DNA from: a virus
Lineage: Duplodnaviria > Caudoviricetes
IMG/VR virus record: IMGVR_UViG_3300011871_000002
Location: 32,001-96,000 of that record
Direction: 5' to 3' (one strand)
Length of the DNA: 64,000 nucleotides
Made by a program: the position numbers and the translations under genes. The notes under the pieces are model-generated. The model was given only the letters and a program-made list of their open reading frames with translations, was not told the origin of the DNA and searched no databases. This document shows, in pieces, positions 2,945-60,287 of the stretch. Within the stretch, counting starts at the first letter, position 1. Each line of letters starts with the position of its first letter.

Positions 2945-5900
2945 TTATCTGTTCACTGCCATGGAGACAGGCGCAGATGTCATGGGTCGCGATGCCTGCA
3001 CCTTGGCAGGGCGTGCTACTTCAGCAGGCTTATCCAGCACCTGGGACTTCGGTGCTTGGTTAGTCCAGCCTTTGAGCGCATCACGCACTTCGATCATCAC
3101 CTCCAGTGACTTCTGGTGCACCTTGTGGGATGCTTCCAGAATCTGGTTGGTGGTCGTCAAACGTTCAGCAGCCATGTCGCGCTGCTGCTGTTGCTGTGCG
3201 TTGACGTTCAAACTACGTTGCGACATGTACGGACCAGTCGCTTCAGGTGGAACTTCACTGCCACCCACGGCAACGGCAGCAGCCACTACTGGTTTGGCCA
3301 CACTTGGCGCCGCTGCCGGACCAGTAAATGGCATGGGTGACTGATCCGATACCGGGATACTTACTGCTTTGGGCTTTTGCTGGAGATTGCCGTTAGCATC
3401 CAGAGAAACACCGTGATCACTGGCCTTCTTACTCAGCGCCGCAGTCAAGGCCGCAGCTTGTTTGCCGGTAGCCGTGGTAGGTTGCCCGGCTGGCACCGGT
3501 GTTGCGCCACCCGCTAAGAGTTTCTCCGAGCCATCGTTCAGGCCAAATCTCTGACCCTTAGCACGCACCAAGCCATTGAGCTTGCTGTAGACTTGCCCGA
3601 TGGTCAAAGGCGAACCATTGCTGTAGAAGATGCTCGCGTTCGCTGCTGCCTCTGCCGGCATGACGTTTGCTGCAATGGCATTCGGATCGGCCGAGAGGAA
3701 CTTCTTGGCACCACCTGCACCCAAGAAGTGCGCCAGATACAGATCGGTGTCCGTGATCTTGCGACCCAGGCCACTGAGCATCTTGGCATTCATCTTGAGG
3801 AACTCACCACCGAGAAGCGCATTGGCGCGCGCATCTGTCGGCGGGGTACCCGGTGCAATCCCGTACTTGGCGCCGAACTTACGCATCATGTCACTCCACG
3901 TGTCGCGGGTGAACTGATACAGACCGGTAGCCGAGCTAGTGGATGCCTTGACGGTTGGATTAAAGCCCGACTCAATGGCCGCCATGGTGGCCATCAGTTT
4001 CTCGTCGACACCCGTCATCTGGGCCGCTGCCGAAATAGTGCCCCGCAGCGCCTCCCACGAACCACTACCCTTTGGCAGTGGAATCGCATTGATGTCCCCG
4101 CCTGTGCCATTACCGGGGTGATTGATTTCTCGCCCACCACTGAATGCTTCACTGACCATGTCTTTCGCGTTGTTAAACACCCGCGAGAAGATATTGCCCG
4201 ACACAGGTTTGCCTTGGGAATCTTGACGTTGACCGAACAGTCGCGAGAAGAAGCCTTGCTGCTGCTGGTTCTTCACTTGGCTGCCCGTACTATTGTTGGT
4301 GATCCCAACTTGCACATTGGTCGACTCTTCAATAACCTTGGACTGCTTGGCTGCATCCTTGATGCTCTGGAAGTTGCCTTCGATGGTTTTCGCATCGTTG
4401 TTGAGCTGGTAGCCCGGCCACGGAGTGGTGGCCACCTGCCAGACCGACACAGGCGAGCCGTTTTCACTACCCTTGGCCGTATAGACCATGGTGGCGACAT
4501 CAACCGCTTGGGTCGGCATCAAAGCCAGTTTGGCTTGGTCCAACCTATTTTTCTTGGTGGCCGAAGCCATTGCCGTCACATAGGCCAAATACGTCGGCAG
4601 ATACCGGCTGTTAAACCAGTTAATCCACGAGTACGCATCGTCATTGGACAAACCCTGTACACCAAAGGCTGATCCCATGGTGGCGATCATGTTTTCCACC
4701 GACCCCGTCCAGGTGGCCACTCCGTCGCGGATGGTGAGGCCCTTGGCGACTTCGGCGTCCATCAGGAACAGTGTACGAACTTTGTCGGCTTCCAAGTCAC
4801 GCAGACCATAGGTGCGATAACGCAGCGCCGTCATGGCGTCCAAACGGCCGGTATTGAAGATGTCGGCCATGACACTAGGACCGCTCATGCTCGTTACCCC
4901 GGCACCAGTGGCAACCGCCGCCGCTCCAACTTTGGCTTGCTGGGTGAGCTGGTTGATTTTGGCCTTATCGGCACTTTGGTACAAATTACCGTTGGCGTCC
5001 ATCCGCACACCAGAATGACTGGCTTTGCGATCAAGCGCTGCTTTCAGTGCGGCAGCTTGGCCTCCGGTCGACGTCGCGGCCAGCGCGGCAGCGGCACCGG
5101 CAGTTCCTGCCGCAGGCTTTGCTGGAGCACTCGCTTCTTCCTTCTTGAGTGCCGCCTCTGCCACTTCAATTGCCGCTGCCACTTCGCGGGACCCGACTGC
5201 GAGTTGGCCCTGATCTGGGAAAGGCGAGGTAACGACATCGTACGGTCCTCCGGCAAACTTTGCGACGTTGAAGTATTGGCGTTTCTGTGCCGGTGTCAAG
5301 TCCTTCACATCTTGCAGGGACTTTTTGGCATCCACCGCCCGCAGTGCTGCCATGTTGTTCAGGAAGACTGGCTTGAAGCGGTTATCGAACCACTGGATGA
5401 AATTCTCCAGTTGCTGCGGGTTTTTGACATCGATACCAAACGCATTGACAAGATCTCGAATATTGATCTTCTTCTCGTCCAGCAGGGCTTTTCCTGCCGA
5501 GAACACCACAGCAGGTTCGAGCATCTTTTCCACACTGAACACCGCTTGCAGGTGGGTTTCATCCGACGCTAAGAAACCATACTGAGCATAACGCACGGTC
5601 GAGTAGGTATCGAGCTGGGCGCGAGTGAAATACTTGTAGCCGTAGTAGCCAGCAGCTCCAACAGCGGCAACTGCCAAACCAGTCAACACAACTGGTGCCG
5701 AAACCAACGCTACCAGGCCACTACCTAACGCACCCAAGCCACTCAGCGCGAGGCTACCCAGACCCGACACTGCGGCGCCAGCGCCTGACAAGAGGCCGCT
5801 ACCGAGGCCACCTAAGGCAAGACCACCCAGTCCGAGAGCACCCCGTGCGAGCATACCACCACCTCGCAACAGGCCACCCCCGGCACGGCCCAACAGGTTC

Positions 5901-14641: not shown

Positions 14642-16053
14642 TAAGCAGTATTTTGAATACGACTGAAGTTTACACGCCTATCCTGTGAGAAATCGCTAGG
14701 AGGCAAACATGTTAAAAGATGAACCAAAGGAAGTCGACGGATTTCCTGGGTTTTATGAAATACCTGGATTTGGAAATTACGCTATCTCTCGCCAAGGAGT
14801 GGTAATCAATTTGCGTGCTGACAGAAAATTAGTCGGCAGTACAAATACCAACGGTTACCATCACTACCGTATCAGAAAAGACGGTGGTGATTTCTTTACA
14901 ATTGGCCGGCATCGATTACTTGGTTTCGTTTTCAAAGGAGCCAAAAAAACTGTACTCGACAGGGTAATCAATCACCTCAACGGAATTAAAGGTGATGATG
15001 ATCTTGATAACTTGGAATGGACTACATACCAAGGAAATGCCGAACACGCTGGTAAACTGGGACTGACACAGTCTTGTTTACCCATCGTAGTGAGAGATGT
15101 AGAGTCTGGTAAAGAAACAGAATACCCAAGTATGGTGGAGTGTGCACGTCACTTTGGCGTGACAGAAGATTTTATCCATTATCGCGTGCGTAGCGGGGGT
15201 AGTCGAGTTTTCCCAGAAAAGAAACAGTATCGGTTAGCAAAGATAGAAGGTCCATGGTTTGTGCCAGAAAACGTCGAAATGGCGCTACTTAAAAATGGAA
15301 CTTCTAAAAAAGCAAGGGTGAAATATGTTCTTACGGGCGAAGTGTTTGAGTTTGACCAGCTAACAAAGTTAGCGGAGTTTCTTAAGATACCACCCCCTAC
15401 CCTGACACTGTGGTTAAAAGCCACGGGTCAACCGGTATTACCAGGTTACATTCAACTCAAAAAAGCAGAGGACACCACTCCGTGGCGTATTGTCGAGGAC
15501 CCTTATCGGGAACTTGATCGGTACACAGGTAAAAGATCGGTTGTGATCACGCACGCAAAAAGCAGAACACAAACGATCTTCTCTTCCAGTATCGAGTGCG
15601 CAAAACTCATGGGTTTAAGTGCCACTACTCTTCATTACCGTCTACAGTCAAAAGGAATGGTAGCATTCTCTGACGGTTACATGTACAGTTATTATTCGGA
15701 TAAAGTCTAAACAAAATATTGCATGGTCCTGTTAGGTAGCGATGCTTAACAGAATTTCCTTTAATTGACGGGGACCCCTTTAGAGCCTTGTACACCAACT
15801 TACTACAGCAATGCGGTAAGGGCCAGACTAACTACCTGGGTACGGTAACAGAGACAAGGATTAGGAAATCCGCAGCGAAGCCCCCACTGGGGAGAACGTT
15901 CAACGACTATGGCCTTATCAGCCAGTACCACCAGGCGGTGGGAAACAGGGAACCTCCCATGTGGAGGAAGATATAGTCTCGACATCCGGGGAAAGCCCGG
16001 AGCTGCGCGTAATGGCGCGGGCAGAGGTGTAGCGCCCTCTGCTGAAGATATCG
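14642..16053 (+). mobile_element. Group I self-splicing intron with HNH homing endonuclease
   Basis: Exon 1 ends in U and intron ends in G; core elements AATTGACGGG (15763), AATCCGCAGC (15867), GTTCAACGACTA (15898), AAGATATAGTC (15968); P7 GACTA/TAGTC; splicing restores ...DVDD-PRRVNFIG in frame. Confidence 0.92.
14709..15710 (+). CDS. Intron-encoded HNH homing endonuclease (NUMOD4-HNH with C-terminal HTH repeats)
   Basis: IPGFGNYAISRQG, HRLL, INHLNGIKGDDDLDNLEW; repeated S-x-x-ECA-x-x HTH modules; GGAGG RBS; lower GC than flanks. Confidence 0.9.
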   Translation: MLKDEPKEVDGFPGFYEIPGFGNYAISRQGVVINLRADRKLVGSTNTNGYHHYRIRKDGGDFFTIGRHRLLGFVFKGAKKTVLDRVINHLNGIKGDDDLDNLEWTTYQGNAEHAGKLGLTQSCLPIVVRDVESGKETEYPSMVECARHFGVTEDFIHYRVRSGGSRVFPEKKQYRLAKIEGPWFVPENVEMALLKNGTSKKARVKYVLTGEVFEFDQLTKLAEFLKIPPPTLTLWLKATGQPVLPGYIQLKKAEDTTPWRIVEDPYRELDRYTGKRSVVITHAKSRTQTIFSSSIECAKLMGLSATTLHYRLQSKGMVAFSDGYMYSYYSDKV

Positions 16054-37462: not shown

Positions 37463-38698
37463 TTAAGCGTGCGTCTTGTAGTAGCGCATCGTGAAGGACC
37501 GAAGCACGACGTACAGGAGCACCCCGGTGCGAATACTGGCAATCACGTTGTCATTGCGATTTTTGGTAGCGCGCCCCACGATGCGCTCGGCTGTTTCACG
37601 CAAGTAGAACAATTCCGGGTCCGTCGAGCGGGAGGAGGTGTACACGCCTCGCAGCCTGCTAAGTAACTCTGCCAGATCCGTGTTCTTGTTTACGAGTTCG
37701 CGGTTATCAGCGAGGTACGCAAAACTATGGATCAGGGTTTTGTCTAGGAGCAACTCGATGTCCTGCGACTGGCGATGTCGGTAGTTATCCGACATGTACT
37801 CCAGCGTCTTGCGAAAGAGTGCCTCAGGCATCGTCGCCATGGCGGACATAACGACATTGACCAATTCTTCACGAATGAACGAGTTACGATCCGTGATGAT
37901 CGAGTGGATGTAACGCGTATAAGCCGTAAGGTTCTTGGTCTTGTCACGTAAGATCTCGGCGCCATCGTGTTCGACCACCGAACTGGTCGACAAAATACGG
38001 CTACCTTGTTTGTGCACGATCATGAATTCGGCGTAAATATTCTTCATGATGTCACGGATGCGCCCCTGGATATCGTTGAGCACATACTGGCAATCCTCGT
38101 CGTTTTCCATCTTCTTGATGGTATCAAAGTGGATGCCATCCTTCTTGATGATTTCTTCCGCACGGCCACGGAACAAATCAAACCAATTCTTGTACTGCTT
38201 GATCAAGAATCGACCCGACAGTGACGCATAAGTCGCTTCTGCGACACTCTCGTCAGCCTGGTAGGCAAAGTAGTGGCCGAGCAAACTCGTAAAGAGCTTG
38301 TACTGCAAAGCAAGCATTGCATCGACCATGGCGGCGTGTTTTTGTTGCTCACTGATGTATTTGCTGTGCATAATCGCATGGGCGAGCCACAGCGCCGACA
38401 GGTTCATGGTATCGCTACCGACGATGCGGTTGGTATAGTCAATGACTTCCAATTTCGATAATCGACTGGTAAGCGGACCTTCTTCGACTTTCATGACTTC
38501 TTCGAACCACCGGCTACGGTCGCCCGAAGTAAAACGCACCACTTGAACACCTAGGAGATGTCCACCAAAGAACTGGATGTGGTCGCGGTTCTTGTTGACA
38601 AACGAGACTTGGTACAGATGCAGCGCTTTCACAAAGTGCGCATCGATCTTCAACGACGCACATTCTTCGTCAAAGATACTTTTGATGGAATCAGGCAT
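37463..38698 (-). CDS. Conserved phiKZ-like protein (gp32-like)
   Basis: 411 aa; FFGGHLLGV motif recalled from this family; synteny. Confidence 0.65.
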   Translation of the reverse strand: MPDSIKSIFDEECASLKIDAHFVKALHLYQVSFVNKNRDHIQFFGGHLLGVQVVRFTSGDRSRWFEEVMKVEEGPLTSRLSKLEVIDYTNRIVGSDTMNLSALWLAHAIMHSKYISEQQKHAAMVDAMLALQYKLFTSLLGHYFAYQADESVAEATYASLSGRFLIKQYKNWFDLFRGRAEEIIKKDGIHFDTIKKMENDEDCQYVLNDIQGRIRDIMKNIYAEFMIVHKQGSRILSTSSVVEHDGAEILRDKTKNLTAYTRYIHSIITDRNSFIREELVNVVMSAMATMPEALFRKTLEYMSDNYRHRQSQDIELLLDKTLIHSFAYLADNRELVNKNTDLAELLSRLRGVYTSSRSTDPELFYLRETAERIVGRATKNRNDNVIASIRTGVLLYVVLRSFTMRYYKTHA

Positions 38699-40807: not shown

Positions 40808-40838
40808 GGCAGAGGGCGACCCCCTCTGCCTTATGCCG
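40808..40838 (+). terminator. Hairpin ending in TTATGCCG
   Basis: GGCAGAGGG/CCCTCTGCC stem. Confidence 0.75.
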
Positions 40839-40863
40839 TAAAACCTTGATTGAAGGAAATTAT

Positions 40864-40876
40864 AACCACATATCAC
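40864..40876 (+). promoter_or_regulatory. Putative early promoter AACCACATATCAC upstream of tnpB
   Basis: Identical 13-mer to 21426-21438. Confidence 0.7.
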
Positions 40877-40904
40877 GCACTGGATAAACCACTAGGGAGG
40901 TCTT

Positions 40905-42077
40905 ATGCAAGAGAATCAAGACCTTCAGCAAGGTCAGGTAAATATTCACAAAACTTTTTGCTATCGCCTTCAACCAACAAAAAAGCAAGAACAACAGTTG
41001 AAGCAGTTTGCTGGATGTTGTCGTTTTGTATATAATTGGGGTTTGGCACGTTGGCAAGAACGATACGCAGCTAATGAATCAACTAGCGTTTTTGCTATTA
41101 GCAATGAATTGGTTTTGTTGAAGAAAGAAACTGAATATGCTTGGCTAAATGAATGTTCAGCACAGGCACTGCAACAGTCATTAGCAAATCTTGGTTCAGC
41201 ATTCAAAGCGTTCTTTGAGAAACGTTCCTCTTATCCGGTTTTCAAAAAGAAAGGAAAAAGAGAAGCATTTCGTTTTATGCAATATTTCAAAGTTCTAGAC
41301 AGGCACCTACAGTTACCTTTACTGGGTTTTGTAAAGTATCGAAAAAATCGTCCTGTCGAAGGTACTGTAAAACATGTTACGATATCACTGTCTGGCGAGC
41401 ACTGGTACGCTAGTGTAACTTGTGAAGTCAGAGTTGAAAAGAAGTACAACAATCCAAGAACTATCGTAGGTGTTGATGTTGGCGTAAAGAACTTTGCGAC
41501 AACGTTTGATGGTAATGAATCAAAACACCATCATCATCTTTTAAGCTTGCAACAAGAAACAGATAAACTCAAGAAACTTCAGAGACAGTTTTGTCATAAA
41601 CAGAAAGGATCAAATAACCGTAACAAAGCTCGATTGAAGCTCAGTAAGCAACACCAACGCATTAAACACATTCGCCACGACACCATCCACAAACTCACTA
41701 CTGCATTATGCAAAAACCACGCAGCAGTAGCGGTTGAGGATTTGTGTATCAAACACATGACGAAAAGTGCACGCGGTACAAAAGAGTATCCTGGTAAAAG
41801 AGTAGCCCAAAAACGTGGTCTTAACCGATCCATCGCTCAGCAAGGTTGGGGTATTCTTTTTCGTCAACTACTTTACAAATGTAACTGGTACGGTTCGTTG
41901 TTTGTGTTAGTTTCAGCAAAAAATACCAGTCAGATGTGTCCTTGCTGTGATTTCATTGCAAAAGAAAATAGACCAACACAATCTGGTTTTAAATGCATAG
42001 ACTGTGAATATACACAACACGCCGATATCGTTGGTGCAATGAATATTCGCCGCCGCGGTATGTCGTGTTTTGGCTAG
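40905..42077 (+). CDS. tnpB: TnpB RNA-guided endonuclease (IS200/IS605 family), no tnpA
   Basis: N-terminal HTH (YRLQPT...CRFVYN), RuvC residues GVDVG, AVEDL, HADIVGAMNI, CPCC/CIDC zinc finger; GGAGG RBS; AT-rich. Confidence 0.95.
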   Translation: MQENQDLQQGQVNIHKTFCYRLQPTKKQEQQLKQFAGCCRFVYNWGLARWQERYAANESTSVFAISNELVLLKKETEYAWLNECSAQALQQSLANLGSAFKAFFEKRSSYPVFKKKGKREAFRFMQYFKVLDRHLQLPLLGFVKYRKNRPVEGTVKHVTISLSGEHWYASVTCEVRVEKKYNNPRTIVGVDVGVKNFATTFDGNESKHHHHLLSLQQETDKLKKLQRQFCHKQKGSNNRNKARLKLSKQHQRIKHIRHDTIHKLTTALCKNHAAVAVEDLCIKHMTKSARGTKEYPGKRVAQKRGLNRSIAQQGWGILFRQLLYKCNWYGSLFVLVSAKNTSQMCPCCDFIAKENRPTQSGFKCIDCEYTQHADIVGAMNIRRRGMSCFG

Positions 42078-42191
42078 AGTCTTAAAGGGTCGGGCAGACC
42101 CGGTTCGCCTGTGAAGTGAGGGATGTAGTAGTGTCTCCAGCAGCAGGAATCTCGATTTTAGGGAATGTCATCACGCCACTGAGTAGAGTAA
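42030..42191 (+). ncRNA. Putative omega/reRNA scaffold plus guide (guide about 42172-42191); 5' end uncertain
   Basis: GGGTCGGGCAGACCC hairpin, GCCTGTGAAGTG...CAGCAGCAGGAA scaffold and TTTAGGG..TGTCA right-end remnant typical of IS605-group ends. Confidence 0.7.
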
Positions 42192-42237
42192 CATCTGCTT
42201 CTTAACAATCATTCAAGAAAATAGGAGAATAGCAACT

Positions 42238-42804
42238 ATGGCCGTTTCACTCACCTTTGATCTTCAAAACGCTACGACTGACTGGCAAATCTACTGGCGT
42301 CTCGTGATGGAGAACCCAGAAAGCTTCTTGTCGGATGAACACCGCAAGACCATCCGTGAGCAACTCCCGCAGGAAATTCTCGACATGGAGATCTCGCCTG
42401 CCGAAAAGGAACGAGTCATTACCATGGCCGCGAAAGCGTGGGAGGAAGTCAAGACTCCGTCCAATATCTGGAGAAAGCATATCTACGCTTCTCAGCCGGT
42501 CGCTCGTGAGGAAAAGCCGCTGGCTGAGTACAAGAAAATGTTGCTCGGTGTCGCGGATGAGTTTATTGCTGAAGTCGATAAGATCGCGGAGATAAAGCAA
42601 CGCGTTGCCACGGCCAAGACCTTCCGGGTGAAGTTTTCGCAAGCCTTCCACAACGCCATGGTTAAAGCGCTGGTTAAAGAGAATTATCCGCACCTCAACC
42701 AAGGTGGCACCAGCCAGCGTAAACGTCGTCGTGTCAAGTCGATCATCGCCGCCAATCGCGCTCGTCTCAAAATGAAAATCATCAAGAAAGAAGGGAACAA
42801 GTAA
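42238..42804 (+). CDS. Hypothetical protein with basic C-terminus
   Basis: 188 aa, AGGAG RBS. Confidence 0.75.
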   Translation: MAVSLTFDLQNATTDWQIYWRLVMENPESFLSDEHRKTIREQLPQEILDMEISPAEKERVITMAAKAWEEVKTPSNIWRKHIYASQPVAREEKPLAEYKKMLLGVADEFIAEVDKIAEIKQRVATAKTFRVKFSQAFHNAMVKALVKENYPHLNQGGTSQRKRRRVKSIIAANRARLKMKIIKKEGNK

Positions 42805-47169: not shown

Positions 47170-48183
47170 ATGAACGAACAAAAGAAAACCGGTACTGTCC
47201 AACTGTTTGCCAATGGCGGCTTGGGCTTCAACATCGGTGCCCAGCTGCAAGCCTTCTGTGACAACAGCGTCGCCGGTGCCGCGCACCTGAAGATCGGCTA
47301 CATCGACACGTCGGATTCGAACATGACCGACACGATCGACGCCAGCAACTGCTACTTCCTGCCGAAAACCGACGGCTCCGGCAAGAACCAGGGCGAACAC
47401 CTCGACCTGATCGACCAGCACGCCAAGCAGATCCTGCAAAAGTTCCCGCCATCGAACGACCTGAACATCGTCCTGTCCTCGGCCGGCGGCGGCTCCGGCG
47501 CCGTGATCAGCAGCACGCTCGCCTCGATCATGATCGAGGAAGGCCACAACGTGATCGCGATCGTGGTCGGTTCGACCGGTGACCTGAAAGAAATCCGCAA
47601 CACCAAGAACGTCATCACGACCTACCAGAACGTCTCCGACGAACTGGGCAAGCCGATCTCGATGGCCTACTTCCAGAACAGCGAAGCCACCCCGCAAGCG
47701 AAGGTCGACCGCGCGATCGTGTCCCTGGTCGGCGCCCTGTGCGTGCTGTTCTCGCGCCAGAACCACGGCATGGACCGCCAAGACCTGAAGCACTGGCTCC
47801 AGTTCAGCGAGAAGAAGATCACCAACTACGGCCCGCGCCTGGCACTGCTGAGCATGTTCGAAGGCAACCAGCCGCTCGGCGACATCGGCGCTGTCATCAG
47901 CGTAGCCACCCTGACCAACGCACAGTCGGGCAGCGGCATCTCGCAGACGCCAGAATACCAGTGCGTCGGCGTGATCCCGGACTACGCGGACAAGGTCGTC
48001 ATCGGTGCCGCGCCCGTGCACTTCGTCAACTCGACCGGCAAGTTCGCCAGCATCAAGGACTCGCTCGACGAGATGAAGAAGAACATCGACCGGCAGCGTG
48101 AAGCGTTGGTCGAAGAAGAATCGGTGAACCTGGCCGCAGTCAAGGGCAAGGCAAACCGCCGGGGCATCGTCGTTGACGATTAA
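47170..48183 (+). CDS. phuZ: Phage tubulin PhuZ
   Basis: GGLGFNIG, IDTSDSN, GSGK, tubulin signature GGGSG; C-terminal GIVVDD knuckle. Confidence 0.95.
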   Translation: MNEQKKTGTVQLFANGGLGFNIGAQLQAFCDNSVAGAAHLKIGYIDTSDSNMTDTIDASNCYFLPKTDGSGKNQGEHLDLIDQHAKQILQKFPPSNDLNIVLSSAGGGSGAVISSTLASIMIEEGHNVIAIVVGSTGDLKEIRNTKNVITTYQNVSDELGKPISMAYFQNSEATPQAKVDRAIVSLVGALCVLFSRQNHGMDRQDLKHWLQFSEKKITNYGPRLALLSMFEGNQPLGDIGAVISVATLTNAQSGSGISQTPEYQCVGVIPDYADKVVIGAAPVHFVNSTGKFASIKDSLDEMKKNIDRQREALVEEESVNLAAVKGKANRRGIVVDD

Positions 48184-50784: not shown

Positions 50785-51243
50785 ATGAAAAAGCGCAGGG
50801 CTGTGTTGTTAGATTTGACCGGCCCTGTGGCCGTGCTTGCTCAGGATTTTTACGAATGGGCGATCACTTATGTGAGTAATCCGGCCTGGGTGTCGTCGCC
50901 TTTTGCCATGATCCAGACCGAGATGTTCCGGCACTTCATCGAGTCGGTGCTCTACGAGATTTTCAAGGAACACCACCATTCGCTGCTTATCGATGTGGAA
51001 CCGGAGTCGAACAAGTTTTTGCGTGAGCAAGGCATGCCACAGGAACTCGTGCTCAAGCTCAAGTGTGAATTTCTCAATAGCGTATTGGCCATCATCTACC
51101 GTGCCTTGCCTGACATTTACTTTGCGGAAATCGAAGCTTGTGATTACGGTTTGACAAATAGCAGTACGCTCATGATTCATATCAACGAAGACGCCGATCA
51201 GCCGATGTTTTTGGCAGCAACACCACCGCCTTCGCGTGTTTAA
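50785..51243 (+). CDS. Hypothetical protein (possible paralog-array member)
   Basis: 152 aa, AAGGA RBS. Confidence 0.7.
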   Translation: MKKRRAVLLDLTGPVAVLAQDFYEWAITYVSNPAWVSSPFAMIQTEMFRHFIESVLYEIFKEHHHSLLIDVEPESNKFLREQGMPQELVLKLKCEFLNSVLAIIYRALPDIYFAEIEACDYGLTNSSTLMIHINEDADQPMFLAATPPPSRV

Positions 51244-51289
51244 TATCCCCCACCGCAGCTTGTTTAGTGCGGTGGCTTAGGAGAATTCC

Positions 51290-51784
51290 ATGATCAATGT
51301 TTTTATTCTGGATTGTCATGATGCCATCAAACAGTTTGTAGGAGAGACAGTGGATTTGGATTTTCCTGTCATTGAAATGCCTACCATTATGCGAGATGTG
51401 ATGGCGGTTTTGGAAAATGAAGAACCCGAAGCCACCGATCTTCATAGCGCAGCCTGCCACTACATTTATGACCATACCGGCCACATCGATCACTTTGATC
51501 CGTATGTGTACGAAGGTATGGAAGATCGTCTTTATTCCGCAATGTTAAAGCTGGCTGGCCGCGTTAGAAATAAACTGCGTCACCACCATGCGTATGCAGA
51601 CGGCCACTTCCCATTTACTTTTACGAAATTCGTCAACGATGGCACATTCATACTCACCCGAAAACGAGAAGCAGACGGCTCCTTCGCACATCATCCTCGA
51701 CACACGGGTGATGCTGAACGAGCTGATGCCGATCATGATGCCGTATCTAGAAGAAACCGAGAGCGCGCCTACGCGTACCGCTAA
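51290..51784 (+). CDS. Hypothetical protein (paralog-array member)
   Basis: 164 aa, AGGAG RBS. Confidence 0.7.
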   Translation: MINVFILDCHDAIKQFVGETVDLDFPVIEMPTIMRDVMAVLENEEPEATDLHSAACHYIYDHTGHIDHFDPYVYEGMEDRLYSAMLKLAGRVRNKLRHHHAYADGHFPFTFTKFVNDGTFILTRKREADGSFAHHPRHTGDAERADADHDAVSRRNRERAYAYR

Positions 51785-58325: not shown

Positions 58326-60287
58326 ATGGCAATCAAAGACGACAACCAGCCGACCGCACTGGGCGCTGCAATGGCCAATGCAGGCGTGAAGTCGAACAAC
58401 AGCAACCAAGCCGATACCCAGCAATCGTCGAACACCAGCACCGACCAGGGCTTCACCAACACCGGCACCGGCAACAACGGCAAGATGTCCTTCTCCAGCA
58501 TGGGCATGGGCCTGGCGGCACCGATCCCGCTGAGCAACACCAGCGAAACCCTGGGCAAGTTCCAGCGCGCGATCCAGGAAGTGATCGACAGCTACAAGCA
58601 AGACACCGCCGCCGTCCAGACCACCCTGATCCCGGTCGATCGCCACGACGGCGCCATCGGCGTGCCGATCTCGTACCTGATCGTCGCTGTCCAGCTGACC
58701 AAGAACCGCGAGGCCGGCGTCGGCTACCTGCCGCTGATCATCGAAGGTTCGATCGACCCGATCCCCGTCACCGAAGAATACGTGGCCGGCGCCCCCGGCG
58801 GCAAGGTGCAGGTGCTGCGTACCGCAGGCGACGCCGACGTGCCAGCAGTGCGTGAAAAGATCCACAAGATCGTCATGGCGCGTTTCCAGACCGACAAGGC
58901 TTACCCGGCCATCGGCATGGTCGTGCCGCGTGACTTCACCGACAACCTGAACGATCCGCTGGCCCTGAAGAACCTGGCCAGCCGTGCCAGCTACGCTGCC
59001 GCCATCGCGCTGCAAACCCAGCTCGGCACCAAGCCGCTGAACCTGGCCGACTACATCGGCGGCGCCGACACGCTGCAAGCCCGCCTGAGCCTGGACTCGC
59101 GTCCGGTGATGAACCTGTTCAAGCAGCCGGTGCGTTCGGACATGAAGGTCACCGTCGTGTCCGAGCCGGTCGCCAAGCAGCAGGTGCCGGGCTTCAGTGC
59201 CACTGGCGGCACCGAGATCGCCAATACCTCGGCCTTCGTCAACGTGATCTACCAGCCGAAGAACGTGGCACAGTCGATCCCTGGCTTCAGCAGCATGACC
59301 CAGCCGTCGCCGGACATGTACATGAAGTACCTGGCCCGCATCGTGCTGACCGACCTGCGCGCTGAACGTATCCAGACCATCGGCGGCCAGCTGCTGGCCC
59401 TGGTATCGGCCATCTCGCTGCGCAACAACGACCTGTGGAAGGCCGCGTTCCTGCCGCGCCGCGACATCGATCCGAACCAGCTCGACCTGCGTGACGTCGG
59501 CGTGCTGAATCAGGAAGTGAACTTCGGCGGCGACCCGAACGTGCCGGGTCCGGTCATGGACATCAAGGCCGACAGCTTCGGTACCCCGCAGCTGATGACC
59601 TTCCTGCGCGCGATCTTCCATCCGGGCGTCGTGTTCGCAGTGGACGTGTCGCTGCGTGGTCCGGACACCTCGTACAACGGTGTGCTGGCCGCAGCAGACG
59701 ACGGCGATGCCGGCGCGATCGCAGCGATCAAGAACGCCGCGAACGCCCTGACCAACGGCGAGTTCCTGAAGATCTTCCCGGCCAACGGCGAAATCACGCT
59801 GAAGAAAGGTGAAAACATCCACCTGGGCTACTACCGCGCCGCCAACGGCGAAGTGCGTGACCTGCGTGACGTCGACGACTACCTGACCATCATGGCCCTG
59901 TTCGGCAAGTCGGCGCCGAACCTGGTGCGTGACTACTCGGACAGCTACCTGAAGACGGCCTACCCGGAAGCCCAGCGCATGGCTGGCCGCCTGGAAGTCC
60001 TGAAGCAGGCTGCACCGAACCTGGTGGTCACCAGCACTGCCCGCCGCGTCACCTTCGCCGGCGTCTTCATCGATTCGCTGGTGCAAGCTGTCGAGAAAGT
60101 CGGCGCCGCCATGCCGATCACCGGCAACGCCTACCTCGACACCGGCACGGCCGATCGTGCAGTGGGCGACTTCAGCAGCGGCCTGACCAGTGCTGCTTCG
60201 TCCGTCCTGTTCACCCGCGCACCGGTCGGCGGCCAAGCCAACAACAGCGCACCGGGCAACCAGTTCGCTGGCATCTGGCGTCCATAA
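58326..60287 (+). CDS. chmA: Chimallin, major phage-nucleus shell protein
   Basis: 653 aa; disordered N-terminus; PVRSD and LRDVG motifs; extreme codon bias; directly upstream of nvRNAP beta' as for phiKZ gp54/gp55. Confidence 0.85.
   Translation: MAIKDDNQPTALGAAMANAGVKSNNSNQADTQQSSNTSTDQGFTNTGTGNNGKMSFSSMGMGLAAPIPLSNTSETLGKFQRAIQEVIDSYKQDTAAVQTTLIPVDRHDGAIGVPISYLIVAVQLTKNREAGVGYLPLIIEGSIDPIPVTEEYVAGAPGGKVQVLRTAGDADVPAVREKIHKIVMARFQTDKAYPAIGMVVPRDFTDNLNDPLALKNLASRASYAAAIALQTQLGTKPLNLADYIGGADTLQARLSLDSRPVMNLFKQPVRSDMKVTVVSEPVAKQQVPGFSATGGTEIANTSAFVNVIYQPKNVAQSIPGFSSMTQPSPDMYMKYLARIVLTDLRAERIQTIGGQLLALVSAISLRNNDLWKAAFLPRRDIDPNQLDLRDVGVLNQEVNFGGDPNVPGPVMDIKADSFGTPQLMTFLRAIFHPGVVFAVDVSLRGPDTSYNGVLAAADDGDAGAIAAIKNAANALTNGEFLKIFPANGEITLKKGENIHLGYYRAANGEVRDLRDVDDYLTIMALFGKSAPNLVRDYSDSYLKTAYPEAQRMAGRLEVLKQAAPNLVVTSTARRVTFAGVFIDSLVQAVEKVGAAMPITGNAYLDTGTADRAVGDFSSGLTSAASSVLFTRAPVGGQANNSAPGNQFAGIWRP

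Follow-up and report, generated by a model that had tools for sequence, protein, structure and literature searches.

Why would a phage that encloses its DNA in a nucleus-like shell carry a solitary gene for the RNA-guided nuclease TnpB in the middle of one of its own promoters? The locus that raises this question lies in a 64,000-nucleotide stretch (the window), which comprises bases 32001-96000 of the 218.7-kb IMG/VR virus contig IMGVR_UViG_3300011871_000002 (G000; completeness estimate 82%). Because this contig encodes a chimallin-type nuclear shell protein, a PhuZ tubulin and a phiKZ-type DNA polymerase, its sequence identifies the source virus as a nucleus-forming jumbo phage; the shell protein has at most 30% identity to that of any GenBank phage. 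We found that tnpB sits on an insert that splits a resident promoter, and that related phages carry the same site uninterrupted. The reading that we favour, with somewhat better than even confidence, is that the insert is a TnpA-independent homing element that would spread between co-infecting phages by cutting the uninterrupted promoter. Feature coordinates are collected in Table 1.

To define the insert, we compared the locus with three related phages, G001 (complete, 224 kb), G002 and G003, which were found only via the conserved upstream gene at 37463-38698. Searches with two downstream proteins by tblastn against GenBank phages, and single-protein scans of IMG/VR, gave no matches. None of the three relatives encodes a TnpB. 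From the terminator hairpin through the motif ATAACCACATAT they are approximately 85% identical to window positions 40808-40876. At the empty site in G001, ATAACCACATAT runs straight into AAC-CGCAG-TGAGTTGAGT, with close variants in G002 and G003, and the relatives' uninterrupted junction can be written ...CACATAT/(A)AC..TGAG.. Homology between the window and these phages stops at 40876-40878 and restarts at 42172. From there the window sequence, CAC-GCCAC-TGAGTAGAGT, aligns with the continuation in the relatives at zero offset (13 of 18 positions identical in G001 and G003), and leader homology past the right end extends to the ribosome-binding site (RBS) in G001 and G002. Because the relatives' sequence passes directly from the promoter core into the homologue of 42172 onward, these alignments identify 40874-42171 as an insert, with filled and empty alleles of one site among related phages. 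A previous interpretation made from the window alone (the sequence-only reading) had predicted this junction, 40873 joined to 42172, and all three tnpB-less relatives match it. The alternative that it had named, another junction such as TTGAT at 40846-40850, was not seen in them. We also rejected TTGAT as a transposon-adjacent motif (TAM) or left boundary, because the pentamer sits in the resident promoter region and is conserved in the empty alleles of G001 and G002 (G003 reads TTGAA).

We next describe the promoter that the insert divides. The motif ATAT(C/T/A)AC has 13 intergenic sites on the + strand of the contig, where the intergenic share is only 7.5%. These include sites upstream of phuZ and of the shell gene, and four related phages have kept the phuZ copy. 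From 12 intergenic sites, excluding that of tnpB, we built a matrix of 54 columns (window 21432, 47058, 55550 and 58232, and eight others in the contig). The consensus of the 12 consists of an A/T-rich stretch, CAC, ATAT, nAC, C, four free bases and T-G-a, in which the G is invariant. This matrix separates genuine sites, which score 29-45 bits, from background. The rebuilt empty allele reached 40.2 bits and the left junction, which now lies before tnpB, reached 32.7 bits. At this left junction the upstream half is intact, and the downstream half (CAC-GCAC-TGG) scores 1.2 bits versus 8.7, at the 97.8th percentile of the genome background. The sequence from 42172 onward, scored as a downstream promoter half, falls at the 99.98th percentile. 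We conclude from these scores that the motif is real and is split by the insert between the core ...CACATAT and the downstream half (nAC-C-N4-TGA). In each of the jumbo phages that encode RNA polymerases of their own, early genes have an AT-rich motif of this kind with its centre near -10 (PMC7598289). By analogy, the motif would be an early promoter of the virion polymerase with a conserved TG near the start site, and the invariant G in TGa may mark the start of transcription.

The sequence-only reading had placed an intact rebuilt promoter ahead of gene 42238. This holds for the joined empty allele and fails for the actual right-end junction, which we rejected as a promoter for that gene at -15 bits. 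Because of this score, the gene has lost its own promoter to the element and probably depends on read-through from tnpB. A simple scan found no terminator-like sites between the right end (42171) and the start of gene 42238; the one weak site listed, a 5-bp stem at 42054-42067, lies inside the 3' end of tnpB. The further proposal that the element restores the promoter with a cleavage-resistant variant adds nothing, since any left end breaks the target.

The inserted open reading frame (ORF) encodes, as judged by homology, a complete TnpB with intact nuclease motifs. It matches the Pfam families HTH_OrfB_IS605 (E 2.5e-19), OrfB_IS605 (RuvC; 9.8e-24) and Cas12f1-like_TNB (zinc ribbon; 3.3e-18), all beyond curated cut-offs, and aligns over its full length with ISDra2 TnpB (8h1j; E 2e-53). 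In this alignment D191, E278 and D374 correspond to the RuvC catalytic acidic residues, and two CxxC pairs, C345/C348 and C364/C367, make up the zinc finger; the sequence-only reading had correctly seen both features as kept. Neither the triad nor the zinc-finger cysteines vary in 14 relatives of 46-68% identity. The intact triad also sets the protein apart from the TldR class, in which the RuvC residues are lost. The contig holds a single tnpB copy. Neither G000 nor the complete genome G006, which carries a related tnpB, gave a match to Y1 (HUH) TnpA (PF01797), and the controls matched; G000 also has no serine recombinase. The lack of tnpA had been noted before and is borne out by these searches. 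The G+C content of tnpB is 0.396 versus 0.523 in its flanks, and that of the gene with its tail is 0.38-0.40 versus 0.50-0.55 in the surroundings.

Rather than subterminal hairpins at both ends, the element has a short stem of 4-6 bp at the right end and none at the left. The 31-nt left end contains no significant hairpin (DNA fold z -1.1) and folds no better than shuffles, which agrees with what had been read there before. At 40898-40924, a 7-bp stem could pair the tnpB RBS region (AGGTCTT) with codons 4-6 (AAGACCT); it too is no better than shuffles (z -1.1). A scan at Rfam gathering scores gave one match in the window, a group I intron at 15692-16001 (51.9 bits, just over the gathering score). 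This is not the arrangement of an IStron, in which a group I intron is fused 5' of tnpB.

Downstream of the gene, 94 nt past the tnpB stop align with the same region of eight relatives (nine lineage members in all) and define four helices of an omega-RNA scaffold. Compensatory changes were found in 13 of 21 pairs (34 compensatory cells), and 97.9% of cells are paired. None of 500 shuffles reached the observed pairing, and all slid controls collapsed. The window copy on its own folds into the same four helices, at an energy no better than shuffles (z -0.15). When the locus was compared with GenBank phages by megablast and blastn, only the scaffold core of the IS1341-type, ISAba30-like elements of Ralstonia phages Dimitile and Cimandef matched. 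The Dimitile element shares 83% nucleotide identity with the window element in this core and 40% protein identity, and the right end of the window element, ...GGAATCTC-GATTTTA-GGGAATGTCAT (to 42171), is homologous to that of Dimitile, which ends ...GGATGTCAA. Unlike the window element, Dimitile has matching hairpins at both ends, of which the right-end one is long and G+C-rich, as well as an additional stem of ~45 nt and a TGTCAA end; two stem-loops of its omega region are missing from the window element. The short right-end stem, which covaries, and a (G/A)(T/C)CAT end are the norm of the window's lineage. What the sequence-only reading had taken for a collapsed IS605-type end is thus the normal form of a phage-borne lineage, and a decayed right end is ruled out by the covarying stem. 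As TnpB guides derive from the right flank (PMC13565253), the predicted guide is 42172-42187/91, which covers the displaced promoter half and leader over their first 16-20 nt. These bases have no other match in the contig.

A second insertion could be verified in a sister element (P0002/L021), the TnpB of which has 68% identity to that of the window and an ORF of the same 390 aa. It lies between orthologues of window genes 50785-51243 and 51290-51784, and the window is the empty allele for its site. The sister interrupts the downstream gene within codons 6-7, following ...GCTTTTAT, with a left flank ending ..TTTAT. Its right-end stem has a loop enlarged to 17 nt that holds GGAGG and a start codon (L021:7237-7300, on a contig of Logan SRR27258064, compared with window 51280-51320). 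The interrupted gene thereby has a new N-terminus of the same character, ..KIVI/LDC in place of ..NAFI/LDC, and a remnant of the old start (ATGAAAAATGCTTTTAT) persists upstream of the element. Since the window element takes a promoter and would be followed by read-through, whereas its sister re-creates an RBS and an N-terminus, both appear to preserve expression of the interrupted unit by different means. The left end of the window element is homologous to the inner left end of its sister from CACGC onward.

We then placed the protein among its relatives. Its closest homologues in 5.8 billion proteins are metagenomic, and those on long contigs are all in jumbo phages. The sister P0002 belongs to a syntenic relative with a DNA polymerase 78% identical to that of the window phage. 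L030 (58% identity) lies in a complete 322.6-kb genome (G006) that has a chimallin homologue, one tnpB copy and no TnpA. More distant members are found beside phiKZ inner-body genes (P0006, 52%), directly upstream of phuZ (P0008, 50%) and on a 255-kb contig with a divergent DnaB (P0016, 45%); the neighbour genes of P0014 match phage protein families. From these contexts, members of the lineage with known surroundings are single-copy and reside in jumbo, mostly nucleus-forming, phages at different loci. They are co-oriented with neighbouring genes, and in all nine elements examined the G+C content of tnpB is below that of its flanks. In a quick maximum-likelihood tree, which is unrooted and has some long, uncertain branches, a branch with 100% support parts 21 lineage sequences from 61 bacterial and prophage TnpBs; Dimitile falls on the bacterial and prophage side. 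GenBank phages hold no homologue of the window TnpB above 45% identity. Two TnpB genes of the same broad lineage, 3 kb apart, were seen on a phage-like contig (L120:1-1113 and 4001-5170, from NCBI GCA_020049715.1), and their omega regions differ from those of the window's sub-lineage. We do not claim the L030 motif TATATTAC as a general promoter of its phage, as it occurs only 7 times in G006.

Comparison of nine elements suggested rules for their junctions. Left flanks end in TAT in seven of the nine: two are verified (CATAT and TTTAT) and five are inferred from motifs (..TATAT in L022, L023 and L030, GTAT in L024 and CTAT in L025). The right ends read CAT (five), CGT, GAT and CAA (two), and none reads TAT. 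These junctions fit a candidate TAM of (N)TAT, with self-targeting avoided. Of the nine elements, four lie in ..TATAT/YAC.., which is the form of the promoter core. We also found that the start of the right flank is repeated at the left end directly after ..TAT, with the best match following TAT in five of the nine. The repeat is longest in L025 (8 nt, p 0.004), followed by L024 (6 nt), the window (5 nt; ~10/13 with one gap) and L022 (5 nt; 11/17 overall), and falls to 3 nt each in L023 and L030 and 2 nt in L021. The promoter consensus accounts for part of the window repeat, and the bases starting CACGC, which are common to the sister, may have travelled with the element. The repeats could have arisen in two ways: a circular copy may have undergone a single crossover with a look-alike site, or selection may have favoured restoration of the split signal. 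On a further tnpB contig, L114, one copy of a 10-nt exact repeat TAGGGGGGTG (~18/22 with gaps; 1464-1490 and 2894-2920) stands 145 nt upstream of the gene and the other immediately past the right end; the two enclose a unit that has a terminator hairpin and its own ATATTAC promoter, and no TAT precedes the repeat.

For the window locus, we propose the following mechanism. The hijacked promoter would transcribe tnpB, with the first 12 nt of the left end serving as a substitute downstream half. The transcript would continue through the scaffold into the flank, so that the displaced promoter half and leader supply the guide. The complex of TnpB and omega RNA would then read TAT, at the end of the core, as its TAM and cut any genome copy with an uninterrupted promoter, whether in a co-infecting sibling phage or in a revertant. 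Recombination with the filled allele would copy the element in, giving homing without TnpA. The filled allele would itself be immune, as the left end follows the TAM on one side and the right end (..CAT) offers no TAM on the other, and gene 42238 would be expressed by read-through. The structural half of the sequence-only reading (an insert in a promoter, its junction, no tnpA and one copy) stands. Its functional half, namely homing, early expression, cutting of empty alleles and entry into the phage nucleus, we infer from sequence.

Several observations weigh against homing. The three known empty alleles depart from the guide at 5 of 16 positions; in G001 and G003, compared base by base, these include positions 1, 4 and 5 beside the TAM, and neither site is a plausible target. 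The sequence-only reading had called for a search for the empty allele, which we found in diverged form in three relatives; a metagenome scan for the exact form gave 23 matches, all due to chance and none in a phage context. Empty alleles of the L030 and L025 insertions were also sought, and these searches gave no close relatives. The chimallin shell excludes many proteins. The candidate TAM is drawn from only two verified and five motif-inferred junctions, and a tnpA may lie in the part of the genome that the contig lacks. Finally, IS200/IS605 elements make no target duplications (PMC13565253), and repeats of the left end and right flank are unexpected for such elements and are unexplained by homing.

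We also weighed other readings of the locus. The nuclease could be kept as a weapon that destroys co-infecting relatives with an uninterrupted promoter, in which case the phage benefits and the victim gains no copy. Nucleus-forming phages are known to interfere with one another through homing endonucleases (PhiPA3 gp210), and a role of this kind would suit a lineage that persists in jumbo phages, its triad and scaffold intact, in single copies co-oriented with their neighbours. Killing and homing can also coexist (PMC13565253). We nevertheless consider a pure weapon unlikely: one fixed 16-nt guide reaches only near-identical siblings, the known relatives being mismatched as described; the different loci occupied in different phages point to mobility rather than to one retained weapon; and a G+C content below that of every host phage suggests repeated transfer. 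We give as little credence to a stranded relic, in which case a host TnpA, acting in trans, would on one occasion have inserted an IS1341-type element that is now an inactive passenger. The missing TnpA, the single copy, the short hairpin-less left end, the loss of two Dimitile stem-loops and the unexceptional single-sequence fold of the scaffold are what such a relic would leave. Against this, catalytic residues and zinc finger are invariant in relatives as distant as 46% identity, the helices keep pairing through their compensatory changes, the short right-end stem is the lineage norm and the ORF is as long as that of the sister; shell-enclosed phage DNA would, moreover, be a poor substrate for a host TnpA.

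How the lineage reaches new loci is a separate matter, and one route compatible with homing at occupied loci is recombination. A circular copy, with right end joined to left, would cross over with look-alike sites, using the promoter core ..AT-YAC.. as microhomology and leaving variable direct repeats. This would account for the repetition of the right-flank start after ..TAT (2-10 nt) and for the four elements in ..TATAT/YAC.. The repeat lengths vary widely, however, several are individually non-significant, and both the promoter consensus and the CACGC held in common with the sister offer other sources for the window repeat; we regard this route as improbable. Least probable of all, in our estimation, is an RNA-guided regulator, a TldR-like repressor or autoregulator that binds at or near the promoter and does not cut. 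The left junction does present TAT and a 5-nt guide match at the promoter of tnpB itself, and TldR proteins repress promoters (PMC13565253), but TldRs are nuclease-dead, whereas the RuvC triad here is intact and invariant, and the partial guide match is just 2-3 nt in L021, L023 and L030. Returning to homing, we put forward one extended version of it tentatively, and as a whole it is rather doubtful. It describes a TnpB lineage adapted to nucleus-forming phages, for which the early-promoter core of the virion RNA polymerase would be both landing pad and TAM (...TAT/YAC...). The left end would carry a substitute 3' promoter half, each insertion would capture an early promoter and take its guide from the displaced half and leader, and the chimallin shell would not keep the nuclease from acting on phage DNA. 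Spread would be by transposase-free homing, and new loci would be reached by recombination that leaves variable direct repeats.

Table 1. Features of the tnpB locus and marker genes of the host phage (window coordinates).
Feature	Position	Strand	Description	Basis
tnpB insert	40874-42171	+	1,298 bp	Empty alleles in relatives
Terminator hairpin of upstream gene	40808-40830	+	Resident; 9-bp stem, 5-nt loop, then TTATGCCGT	Read in sequence; kept with promoter in tnpB-less G001, G002, G003
Upstream half of resident early-type promoter	40844-40873	+	A/T-rich stretch and core ATAACCACATAT; final TAT is the candidate TAM	85% identity to G001, G003
Left end of insert	40874-40904	+	31 nt; starts CACGCACTGG, which mimics the displaced promoter 3' half, then RBS AGGGAGG; without hairpin	
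tnpB	40905-42077	+	390 aa; RNA-guided RuvC nuclease (by homology)	Pfam, alignment to ISDra2 TnpB
Omega-RNA scaffold 3' domain and right end	42078-42171	+	4 helices ending with the right-end stem TCTC/GGGA; GTCAT follows	Covariation
Right flank	42172-42191	+	Predicted guide segment (16-20 nt); displaced promoter 3' half (CAC-GCCAC-TGAG)	Homology to G001, G003
Remaining resident leader, RBS and gene 42238-42804	42192-42804	+	188 aa, no family	
PhuZ tubulin	47170-48183			
Chimallin-type nuclear shell protein	58326-60287			

Two further observations concern the resident DNA around the insert. The octamer TATGCCGT or a variant of it lies directly 3' of terminator hairpins in the window phage (40831-40839), in its relatives (L017:2135-2143) and in the unrelated contig L114 (1500-1560), in agreement with an earlier note of a 'clamp'. 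Promoter and leader are conserved among four phages, and the gene behind them differs: the window has the 188-aa ORF, and G001 and G003 have an ORF of ~50 aa (window 42172-42804 against L017:2177-2390, L019:2543-2755 and, on the - strand, L004 around 6645). It seems that the expression signal has stayed fixed and the cargo behind it was exchanged.

The window element resembles known systems in different respects. It is like ISDra2 TnpB of the IS200/IS605 family (PDB 8H1J, 8BF8, 8EXA) in domain order, in the RuvC D-E-D triad and zinc finger, in a scaffold encoded at and after the 3' end of tnpB and in a guide taken from the right flank. It differs in having neither a TnpA partner nor a left-end hairpin, in a candidate TAM of TAT rather than TTGAT, and in being a single-copy element within a promoter of a lytic jumbo phage. 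With phage homing endonucleases, both free-standing and intron-borne (T4 Seg/Mob; PhiPA3 gp210), it shares presence or absence at one locus, low G+C content, a predicted target that is the empty allele and an expected action in co-infection. These enzymes recognize their targets as proteins, whereas the window TnpB would depend on an RNA guide together with a 3-nt TAM, and its target is destroyed by the insertion itself. The mechanism that we propose matches 'transposon non-restorative homing', whereby TnpB cleaves the orthologous empty site of another replicon and the element is copied by repair, with no TnpA involved (PMC13565253). Among plasmid copies, TnpB also helps an insertion to spread independently of TnpA (PMC13565253). 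Demonstrations of TnpB homing are limited to transposon maintenance in bacteria; in the same 2026 review, phages are a theoretical case only (PMC13565253). In the full-text literature we found no paper on TnpB in nucleus-forming phages.

This locus provides a concrete candidate for homing of this type in a phage, in which a filled allele can be set beside its empty counterpart, the guide is defined and a TAM can be proposed. In its own right, the promoter matrix, which includes the conserved downstream TG, should be useful for early-gene annotation in this phage group. More broadly, these data point to a whole TnpB lineage resident in jumbo phages, mostly nucleus-forming ones, in which most nucleases are kept away from the DNA. 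Should the lineage prove active, it would represent an RNA-guided nuclease that reaches DNA inside, or en route into, the phage nucleus; it would be a compact nuclease of 390 aa with a short scaffold and a 3-nt TAM; and it would be a selfish element that lives off a promoter signal of its virus.

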